Positions 21,130 through 22,664 of a stretch of 64,000 bases of DNA are shown one piece after another. Source of the stretch: Pseudomonas phage HHBS36_1; sequence record PQ287642.1; one strand, given 5' to 3'. The notes below the pieces were generated by a model that made no database searches, was not told the origin of the DNA, and saw only the letters and a program-made list of their open reading frames with translations. Position numbers and translations under genes: made by a program. Every line of letters starts with the position of its first letter. Position 1 is the first letter of the stretch.

Positions 21130-22664
21130 TTAGTGCATGGCTATCCGTCTGAGTACCATTGAAAGAGTTTTACCGGCGAAATGCTCACTTTTATTCCGAG
21201 CATATCTCACGTGGTGCGGTATGTTTTCACACACTAGGTAGGTCAACCTAGGTACCACATCTTGGAAGTCTTTCAGTTTACGGAGACGACCCAGAATTTG
21301 AATGTTATCTTTCTTGGAATCGGTAGCTTGTAACAATACTACCTCACGAAGATTAGGGATGTCTACACCTGTACCAGATGACTTAATAGTGGACACCGTA
21401 ATGTCGTTCTTAAGTAACTGTTCATAACTGCAACCTGAGACATGTCCGTTAACCACAAGGTCAGGGAACTTAGTCTTCAGATATTTAACCAGTTTTTCAA
21501 TAAAGGCGACCGTTGCACAAAGGAGGAGTAGTTTCTGACCAGGTAACCGATCTTTCACATACACGCCATCAGCAATACGACCGACCATCCTGAAATAGTC
21601 ATCCATCCGTTTAGGATCTTTCATCATTACCGTTTCGTAACGCGCATGGTTATACGTATTCTTAAACGGTGTAAGATAATCCTTCGGTTTGATCTTTGGT
21701 TCAGTGTAGAGTAGCCCCATGCAGTTGATGTAGACATCGTAGTTGGGCAGGCGACACATGGTCTCTGCTGGCAACATCTTGTCAATCATCTTCGTCACGT
21801 AGGCGTTCCCTGTGTAGGGAGTAGCCGACAAATAGATCTGCTTATTAATGTTAGAGTAAATATCGATACGGAAGGTTAGTCCTGGATCTTCTTGAATCTC
21901 GTCGTTAATTTGCAGTCCTGCTTGTATTGCTTCGTGGAACCGGGGTGGAGGTACATTGTATCCGAGCTCATGGAGTCGGTTACCATACTTCTCAAAGTTA
22001 TCTAGATATGCCCGGTAGGTAGTAGAAGAGATTACAATAACGTCAATCCCTTCAAGATCGTTTTCGACGCCGCGATCTATTAGTTTTTGGAGTTCTGCGG
22101 AACCCGAGATGGTAATGTATCTCTGGGCAATGTCCTTGTAAGTGTTCTGAAGAGCCTCAATCCAAATACCAAAATACTTGGGAGGAACCATCACAACACA
22201 TCTTACCCCCATCGAAGCCAAGGACGCTAGGCTCGTGAGGGTTTTCCCTTTCCCGTTTGCAAGTCTACCCGTGCAGAATGTAACCAATCACGCAAAATAT
22301 CTTCACGGATGATTTCCTGATAATCCCGGAGTACGTATTTCTCGTACATTTCGTAAACAGCAATTGCTGCTTTAGGGACAGGGATATCCTCAATCTCGAC
22401 TCGTTCTCTTGGGATACCTTTGTTCTCCAGATAACCGATCAGGTCTTCTAGTGAATTTCGGTGGATATAAGTCTCTGATAGATCTTCGAAACAACCATAG
22501 TACTTTTTCTTGAGTTCCATGATGATTCGATTACCAGGGATCTTCTTAGGTTCTTTCAAAGAAAGCCCTTCAAGAAACCCCTGCATCTTAGCGAACGTTT
22601 CCCGAGTATACCCAGATAGTCGGACACCATGCGTATAGCGCTCAGCCTTGAGTATCGGTAGCAT
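21130..22664 (-). CDS. SF2 (UvsW/DEAD-like) DNA/RNA helicase interrupted by a -1 frameshift near 22242-22254
   Basis: Upstream ORF (22227-22664) carries Q-motif LRDYQ and ends ...DLQTGKGKPSRA*; downstream ORF (21130-22287) begins ...GRLANGKGKTLTS and has LSATPY (motif III), SSGTGVDIP (V), QATDSKKDNIQILGRLRK (VI). Joining at GGGAAAG/GGGAAAA gives canonical motif I LQTGKGKT 22 aa after YQ. Confidence 0.65.

Follow-up and report, generated by a model that had tools for sequence, protein, structure and literature searches.

A helicase gene divided between two reading frames

A stretch of 64,000 nucleotides from Pseudomonas phage HHBS36_1 (PQ287642.1), referred to here as the window, was identified as belonging to a PhiPA3/PS119XW-like jumbo phage of Pseudomonas aeruginosa (Chimalliviridae). 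Directly 3' of the RNA polymerase beta-subunit genes, its minus strand carries a helicase gene that is divided between two overlapping open reading frames (ORFs) and is probably expressed by -1 ribosomal frameshifting. The gene is orthologous to PhiPA3 gp068, phiKZ gp075, and 201phi2-1 gp131, with the annotation 'RAD2/SF2 helicase' (SF2, superfamily 2). The frame break is defined by three features.

22664..22227, minus strand: 0-frame ORF encoding 145 aa, with the C-terminus ...DLQTGKGKPSRA*
22227..22229, minus strand: 0-frame TAG stop codon, which terminates the non-shifted product
21130..22248, minus strand: -1-frame continuation of 372 codons, from GKTLTS... through both RecA-like domains to TAA

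Across the junction, the minus strand (22256..22227) reads ACG GGA AAG GGA AAA CCC TCA CGA GCC TAG and is preceded by GAC TTG CAA. The 0-frame ORF consists of the N-terminal helicase codons 1-139, six out-of-frame codons, and the TAG. In the -1 frame the sequence reads GGG AAA GGG AAA ACC CTC... and stays open as far as the TAA at 21132..21130. Joining codons 1-139 to the 372 codons of the -1 frame gives a fused product of 511 aa, a length that agrees with the intact orthologues of phages HPP-Temi (511 aa) and PhiPA3 (510 aa). The -1 slip rebuilds the Walker A motif as LQTGKGKT, 22 residues past the Q of the Q motif LRDYQ (LRDYQ-(21 aa)-GKGKT), and the junction peptide of the fused protein is ...DLQTGKGKTLTSL..., with ...GKGKPSRA as its 0-frame counterpart. 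An earlier model-made reading of the sequence (the original prediction) had described two overlapping ORFs, the second in the -1 frame over the same nucleotides, and a slip yielding LQTGKGKT 22 residues after the Q motif; the sequence and both ORFs were reproduced, and the 511-aa fusion confirms the position of the motif. The 145-aa product that it named was also recovered, while its stop '9 codons later' was approximate, the TAG following six sense codons past the first slippery heptamer.

Identity of the encoded helicase

A tblastn search with the helicase resulted in matches in 299 phage records, and the fused protein aligns end to end with the intact orthologues. Residues Q116, G138, G140, K141, D255, and E256 are invariant in the orthologue alignment. 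Family assignment required a comparison of folds, because the ResIII, Helicase_C, and DEAD models all scored below the cut-offs in a Pfam scan and a PDB sequence profile gave marginal matches (E ~0.003). The AlphaFold2 (AF2) model of the fused protein, with a predicted local distance difference test (pLDDT) score of 90.7, was searched with Foldseek, which retrieved XPB/Ssl2 chains at E ~2e-15 and T4 UvsW (2oca) at E 1.7e-13. In this model, two RecA-like domains are predicted, with the Q motif (LRDYQ, 112-116), Walker A GKGKT, D255-E256, and a C-terminal helicase domain. Judged by its modelled fold, the gene product is an XPB/UvsW-like SF2 helicase.

The full-length model also gives a view of the part shared by both products. 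Residues 1-95 form a compact alpha/beta N-terminal domain (N-domain), and residues 96-145 comprise the Q-motif helix, strand beta-1, and half of the P-loop. When the 145-aa fragment was modelled alone, it reached a pLDDT of 61 with residues 97-145 at low confidence, and this model was left out of the fold search because of that low confidence. From these models, the 145-aa product is probably a folded N-domain with a disordered tail.

The frame break in close relatives and in nine further lineages

The region is 99.8% identical to that of phages PA1C, PS119XW, phiHQ, BRkr, and phiLBG22, 89% identical to HPP-Temi, and 78% identical to PhiPA3. The first five, which form the window clade together with the window, carry an identical 1-nt gap relative to HPP-Temi and PhiPA3; they are independent deposits from different laboratories and countries (sources include Pakistan and Japan). 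The junction is contiguous in HPP-Temi (ACA GGT AAA GGA AAG ACC) and PhiPA3 (ACA GGA AAA GGG AAA ACG), where the helicase is annotated as one coding sequence, and it is annotated as two in all four annotated clade genomes. The orthologue comparison that had been proposed with the original prediction thus returned a break common to the five clade genomes and a contiguous gene in HPP-Temi and PhiPA3.

Protein collections were then searched in two rounds, the query being the 145-aa fragment in the first and a profile built from the recovered fragments in the second. This search resulted in homologous N-terminal fragments of 128-145 aa, all ending just past ...LQTGK, from nine other lineages: L045-L047, L048, L049/L050 (the same contig as L035), L052, L053, L054, L055/L056, L057, and L058. 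Several of the nine were assembled from separate sequencing runs. Every one of them reads CAR ACG GGA AAG G.. and continues with GKGK(T/S/A) and the rest of the helicase in the -1 frame; identity to the window is 40-75% for the N-terminal fragments and 71-78% for the fused proteins. The window clade and these nine are referred to below as the ten frame-broken lineages. In every frame-broken lineage the 0-frame stop lies 3-9 codons past the heptamer, after tails that vary among lineages (GKGKPSRA, GKEKLSPV, GKERP, GKGRPFRP, GKAKPSVL, and others). Because these tails are not conserved, there is no 0-frame selection beyond the shift site.

An exact DNA pattern scan of IMG/VR for the broken junction found only L051, an unrelated chance match. 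Protein-guided scans of IMG/VR and metagenomes found no more close relatives of the window clade and yielded L035/L049 and the intein alleles described below. In one of the recovered sequences (L052, 892..1326), the stored protein P0012 reads an in-frame TGA as Trp (…ERAWVR), a mismatch with translation table 11; this read-through is a quirk of gene calling at the source, not biology.

A conserved slippery heptamer with stimulatory elements

Three further features at the junction bear on how the frame could be restored.

22254..22248, minus strand: slippery heptamer 1, G GGA AAG, the putative shift site, identical in 10 of 10 frame-broken lineages
22248..22242, minus strand: slippery heptamer 2, G GGA AAA, a formal second site that gives the same product, found in the window clade only
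22242..22205, minus strand: predicted stimulatory hairpin, ACCCUCACGAGCC...GGCUUCGAUGGGGGU, ~15 bp with 2 bulges, 5 nt past heptamer 1

Both heptamers, which had been proposed from the outset, conform to X XXY YYZ in the 0 frame and are formally canonical, but only G GGA AAG is conserved, G GGA AAA being specific to the window clade. Elsewhere, the position of the second heptamer is occupied by GGAAAAA, GGAAAGA, GGGAAGA, and similar sequences. Its spacing is also unfavourable because the hairpin begins at its last base, and heptamer 2 is probably a minor site. As a bare word, G GGA AAG occurs 9 times in the window where 6.2 copies are expected, which is no enrichment. Its location at the sole place where a -1 shift restores Walker A does exceed chance, as does its exact conservation in all ten lineages. 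The Thr codon ACG, which the heptamer requires, is used in 10 of 10 frame-broken sequences and in 3 of 23 intact ones (Fisher p = 3e-6, with phylogenetic non-independence ignored). In intact genes, the first Gly is mostly GGT, and no 0-frame slippery heptamer occurs at the Gly-Lys codons. The sequence G_GGA_AAG is listed as highly shift-prone in Escherichia coli (PMC5009743). No tRNA gene was found within the window. Two intact genes with a GLGK Walker A, L032 and L034, have formal 0-frame heptamers at the same place (T TTG GGT and T TTG GGG, respectively), with no sign of use.

A search for a downstream hairpin had been suggested at the start, and the predicted hairpin that was found covaries and is specific to frame-broken alleles. 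In the window, the 38-nt hairpin has a folding energy of -18.2 kcal/mol and the enclosing 50-nt segment one of -19.2 kcal/mol (z = -2.5); the fold of the whole 121-nt region is not unusual (z = +0.67), so that the local hairpin alone stands out. Hairpins of -12.9 to -31.1 kcal/mol occur 5-6 nt past the heptamer in seven of the ten frame-broken lineages, and a hairpin in the same register occurs in about 2 of 21 intact orthologues. For the statistical tests, lineages were treated as independent. In the first five frame-broken lineages, 5.9-6.9 of the 7 register pairs are formed in the ensemble, compared with a mean of 1.6 in the 21 intact orthologues (Mann-Whitney p = 0.0002), and the mean z-scores of the fold are -2.3 and -0.6, respectively (p = 0.0009). 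The intact sisters form almost none of these pairs (0.23 for HPP-Temi and 0.01 for 201phi2-1). When five frame-broken sequences were folded together with RNAalifold, a 14-pair stem was obtained with compensatory changes in 7 of the 14 pairs; 83% of its cells are paired, compared with 71% in shuffled alignments (0 of 500 reached the observed value), and scores drop strongly when the register is slid. In intact orthologues, pairing of these 14 pairs reaches 43.5% and the two distributions do not overlap, although the structure was derived from the frame-broken set. In L057, the hairpin (-31 kcal/mol) is made of intein codons, and the non-frame-broken intein alleles L025 and L038 have no such hairpin.

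A second type of candidate stimulator lies upstream. In L052, L054, L055, and L058, a Shine-Dalgarno (SD)-like element (AAGGAGG, AGGAGG, or AAGGAGA) ends 14 nt 5' of the heptamer, where it corresponds to Ser-Arg-Arg written with AGG/AGA codons. The predicted duplex with the anti-SD has an energy of -8.5 to -11.4 kcal/mol in these four lineages and of -5.9 kcal/mol or weaker in 22 of 22 intact sequences (p = 0.005). The strongest elements are those of L055 and L058, both of which are without the hairpin. The stimulators recruited thus differ by lineage, being a hairpin, an SD-like element, or both.

Distribution, recombination and inteins

The frame-broken alleles are spread over neighbour-joining trees: the intact HPP-Temi is the sister of the window (bootstrap 100), the intact 201phi2-1 is the sister of L049 (bootstrap 100), and the remaining frame-broken alleles fall on at least six further branches. 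This scatter implies several gains, several reversions, or lateral transfer. The frame-broken state is in the minority, as three of the best 120 protein clusters are C-terminal fragments of frame-broken alleles. When identity was examined in sliding windows, the similarity between the window and HPP-Temi was found to fall at the site (22360..22150) to 76-78%, compared with a gene mean of 89%, while similarity to L045 rises there to 82% (mean 67%) and to L048 to 77-81% (mean 70%). On the sequence comparison, this peak is compatible with exchange of the cassette by short-patch recombination and also with convergent selection for the heptamer and hairpin.

A separate pattern was seen at the start of the gene. 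The first ~225 nt (22664..22440, minus strand) are 98-100% identical to HPP-Temi (L002), and the rest is 76-96% identical; the mosaic boundary near 22440 suggests recent recombination between the window and HPP-Temi phage types.

Inteins were found in about a third of the homologous clusters (~40 of the best 120; 655-881 aa), between GKGK (or GLGK or GYGK) and T. Examples are L025 (4..2601), L038, and L040 and the proteins P0008, P0009, P0011, P0013, and P0016. The Walker A intein ends ...THN|T, often contains LAGLIDADG, and has A, S, G, or D as its first residue in place of Cys or Ser. Its insertion point lies one Gly-Lys pair 3' of the frameshift site. The window helicase has no intein, as there is no insertion and the fused length is 511 aa. 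In L055/L056 (2001..4138), L057 (361..2798), and L058 (2001..4138), a frame break is combined with an intein right after GKGK; L055 and L058 have a mini-intein of ~200 aa, and that of L057 is a LAGLIDADG intein. Because both occur in one gene, the mature helicase would need recoding as well as protein splicing in these cases. The idea that the frame break guards Walker A against intein homing was rejected as a general explanation, since L055/L056, L057, and L058 carry both.

Proposed mechanism

Expression of the helicase most likely relies on -1 ribosomal frameshifting at G GGA AAG, helped by selected stimulators. In the window, translation would begin at 22664 and proceed through 139 codons. 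Once GGA occupies the P site and AAG the A site, a fraction of the ribosomes would slip one base back, and tRNA-Gly and tRNA-Lys would re-pair on GGG AAA, aided by the ~15-bp hairpin 5 nt downstream (22242..22205). Shifted ribosomes would then read GKT..., completing Walker A and the 511-aa helicase, and non-shifted ribosomes would stop six codons on and release the 145-aa protein. That the slip is ribosomal, and how efficient it would be, we infer from the sequence. Programmed frameshifting was one of three options offered by the original prediction, and it is the one that the comparative evidence supports, through the conserved heptamer and the lineage-specific stimulators. As these stimulators track the frame break, selection for efficient shifting is indicated.

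Several observations weigh against this proposal. The window hairpin is moderately unusual only (z ~-2.3 to -2.5, p ~0.02-0.03 against shuffles), and the intact PhiPA3 sequence folds nearly as stably, in a different register. No convincing SD-like element lies upstream in the window (only GGGU, -3.8 kcal/mol), and L053 has neither stimulator, its contig stopping 86 nt past the site. If the site spread by recombination, there would be fewer independent events than the tests assume. Antisense knock-down of PHIKZ075 did not reduce plaque counts (PMC12571901), and low helicase levels or even loss might be tolerated in the laboratory. The tRNA-Lys repertoire of P. aeruginosa bears on the slipperiness of AAG in the A site. 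The literature search found no proteomics, ribosome profiling (Ribo-seq), or reporter data for these phages.

Alternative explanations

Some of these points would equally suit a leaky 'problem indel', in which a 1-nt deletion in a slip-prone G/A tract is tolerated, the hairpin is incidental, and the short product is waste. The intact HPP-Temi and PhiPA3 genes show that the contiguous form works, the window hairpin taken by itself is only modest, and the unchanged plaque counts upon knock-down of phiKZ075 suggest that low levels suffice; such compensatory frameshifting is covered in a review (PMC5009743). A tolerated accident does not, however, readily account for a state that is common to ten lineages across saturated synonymous divergence, for hairpins that covary and are specific to frame-broken alleles, or for SD-like elements made of rare AGG AGG codons in frame-broken alleles only. 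Nor does it account for L057, which combines frame break and intein and has a hairpin of -31 kcal/mol that intein alleles without the break lack. We consider this explanation unlikely, although it is the best of the alternatives.

Recent pseudogenisation, another of the options first offered, would mean that the helicase is dead in the clade and that the two ORFs are decaying remnants. This possibility was addressed through the ratio of non-synonymous to synonymous substitution rates (dN/dS), which is 0.045 against HPP-Temi over the whole gene and 0.04 for the part 3' of the shift, with dS = 0.77. When changes were polarised with PhiPA3, the window-clade branch was assigned 65 synonymous changes and 6 non-synonymous ones; the branch of the intact HPP-Temi, with 52 and 13, fares no better. 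The pair L049 and 201phi2-1 likewise gave a dN/dS of 0.045, with similar ratios on both branches. No second stop or indel was found in any of the ten frame-broken lineages, the heptamer and the stimulators are conserved, and the phiKZ orthologue is strongly depleted of transposon insertions, with 2 insertions and 15 reads in the 1614 bp of PHIKZ075 by transposon insertion sequencing, compared with thousands of reads in dispensable neighbours (PMC12676376, supplement 2). Antisense knock-down of PHIKZ075 also lowers ChmA accumulation (PMC12571901). In favour of decay, each of the four annotated clade genomes lists two separate proteins for the gene, and 3 of the 6 codons that vary within the window clade are non-synonymous (the other three being synonymous), which is too sparse a sample to inform on constraint. 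With constraint downstream of the break strong and unrelaxed and no further lesions, pseudogenisation is not supported and is highly improbable.

Slightly less credible again is restoration at the RNA level, whereby the phage or host RNA polymerase stutters in the G/A tract and adds a base so that a fraction of the mRNAs is in frame. Known transcriptional slippage sites need about 7-9 or more identical bases, and the longest runs at the junction are A4 and G3. Conservation, moreover, is seen in the X XXY YYZ register of ribosomal slippage, together with a hairpin spaced by 5-6 nt and an SD-like element spaced by 14 nt, both of which are ribosome-specific stimulators. What speaks for such stuttering is that these phages have unusual multisubunit RNA polymerases, which are encoded beside the helicase gene, and that transcriptional slippage rescues interrupted genes in other bacteria, as reported for tssM in Citrobacter (PMC4256274).

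Less probable still is a split helicase, in which a C-terminal fragment with its own translation start would join the 145-aa fragment non-covalently to form an active enzyme. An ATG (M152) does lie 15 nt 3' of the 0-frame stop in the window, and the C-terminal ORFs in GenBank are called from ATG codons; this start codon is not conserved, though, residue 152 being M, M, L, K, or L in five lineages, and neither fragment would have a complete P-loop, as GKGK(T/S) arises only through -1 read-through.

A sequencing or assembly error, with a base missing from a homopolymer-rich stretch, is the least credible of all and can be set aside, for although the site lies within a G3/A3/A4 tract and the closest orthologues outside the clade are contiguous, the gap is shared by the window and five GenBank genomes from separate laboratories and countries, at least 9 other samples yielded contigs with the same junction, three runs gave separate assemblies of one allele (L045-L047), and a further allele is present in both NCBI and Logan assemblies. 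The original prediction had allowed for such an indel and had taken contiguous orthologues as a sign of it, which proved misleading, as the shift is real despite the contiguous genes of the closest orthologues.

A possible role for the frameshift

Beyond ribosomal frameshifting as the means of expression, a more tentative proposal is that the frameshift is an adaptive, transferable module that fixes the ratio of N-domain to helicase and that was gained repeatedly or was passed between co-infecting nucleus-forming phages by short-patch recombination. Transfer of a module is suggested by the similarity profiles: frame-broken alleles are most alike at the site, where the intact sister is least similar. 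The free N-domain may correspond to the N-terminal domain of XPB. Export of mRNA from the proteinaceous nucleus before translation lets transcripts fold first, which might favour structure-stimulated recoding.

Flanking features

The helicase gene is flanked by GC-rich hairpins on both sides and may form its own transcription unit. The downstream one is as follows.

21106..21125, minus strand: terminator-like GC hairpin directly after the helicase stop, marking the end of the unit (a consensus match only, from a terminator scan)

A second GC-rich hairpin (22706..22680, minus strand), with the sequence GGGAGGGCTTTGGCTCTCCC followed by TTT, lies in the gap that separates the RNA polymerase subunit gene from the start of the helicase. 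The region 3' of the helicase (19525..21112, minus strand) contains six small ORFs of 62-100 aa that are strongly hydrophobic and resemble membrane proteins; PA1C and HPP-Temi have equivalent small ORFs, labelled there as hypothetical proteins.

Significance and comparison with known systems

The well-known conserved -1 frameshifts of double-stranded DNA (dsDNA) phages are in tail-chaperone and capsid genes. If expression is as proposed, recoding here reaches a core-genome enzyme of nucleus-forming jumbo phages, and with the site inside the ATP-binding loop, the catalytic protein would exist only when the ribosome slips. Frameshifting in phiKZ-like or nucleus-forming phages did not come up in full-text searches of the literature. 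For annotation, a conserved and apparently fitness-critical helicase is at present split or labelled 'hypothetical' in four GenBank genomes and should be given as one recoded gene. The ten patchily distributed lineages, with their intact sisters and interchangeable stimulators, offer a natural experiment on the gain, tuning, and loss of recoding signals. PhiPA3- and phiKZ-like phages serve in therapy and as models in cell biology. Were the helicase dose set by frameshift efficiency, it would depend on ribosome state and on tRNA modification in the host, with possible consequences for host range and yield.

The enzyme itself shares with XPB/Ssl2 and T4 UvsW a fold match, the Q motif, Walker A GKGKT, and D255-E256, while sequence similarity to them is marginal. 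To our knowledge, no XPB-family gene needs recoding.

With respect to the frame break, a partial parallel exists in the G-string mutants of herpes simplex thymidine kinase, in which a 1-nt indel in a homopolymer is offset by ribosomal slippage that yields some full-length enzyme (PMC5009743). As proposed for the helicase, slippage in this 'savior indel' type of frameshifting compensates for a 1-nt indel that arose within a homopolymeric tract of a gene for an enzyme. The herpes mutants, however, are recent and drug-selected, with very low slippage and without dedicated stimulators, whereas the helicase break persists over deep divergence with covarying hairpins and SD-like elements.

The OrfA/OrfAB genes of IS3-family insertion sequence (IS) elements resemble the helicase in using an X XXA AAG-type heptamer with a hairpin and/or an SD, and in giving rise to a short domain protein and a catalytic fusion. 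In IS elements, the shift is a universal regulatory feature, whereas many close relatives of the helicase do without it.

The tail-assembly-chaperone frameshift of lambda G/GT uses G GGA AAG, the same heptamer as the helicase. It too is a conserved case of recoding in dsDNA phages that gives a short and a long product from one start. The lambda G/GT shift is conserved by position in nearly all long-tailed phages and lies between two domains of a chaperone, whereas the helicase shift occurs sporadically (in 10 lineages out of a couple of hundred clusters) and lies inside a catalytic motif of an enzyme. G_GGA_AAG is also cited for g-t frameshifting in archaeal viruses (PMC5009743).

In E. coli dnaX (tau/gamma), as in the helicase, a replication-type rather than a structural gene carries an X XXA AAG heptamer with a stem-loop 5-6 nt downstream, and two products have a common N-terminus. 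The upstream SD-like element of dnaX is matched in four of the phage lineages, with a spacing of 10 nt in dnaX and 14 nt in the phages; the window itself has the hairpin only. The heptamer in dnaX is A AAA AAG rather than G GGA AAG. The arrangement of the products is also reversed, since in dnaX the shifted product is short and the full length comes from the 0 frame, whereas the full-length phage helicase would need the shift. Taken on its sequence features, the helicase signal is a canonical bacterial -1 frameshift cassette, closest to those of dnaX and lambda G/GT.

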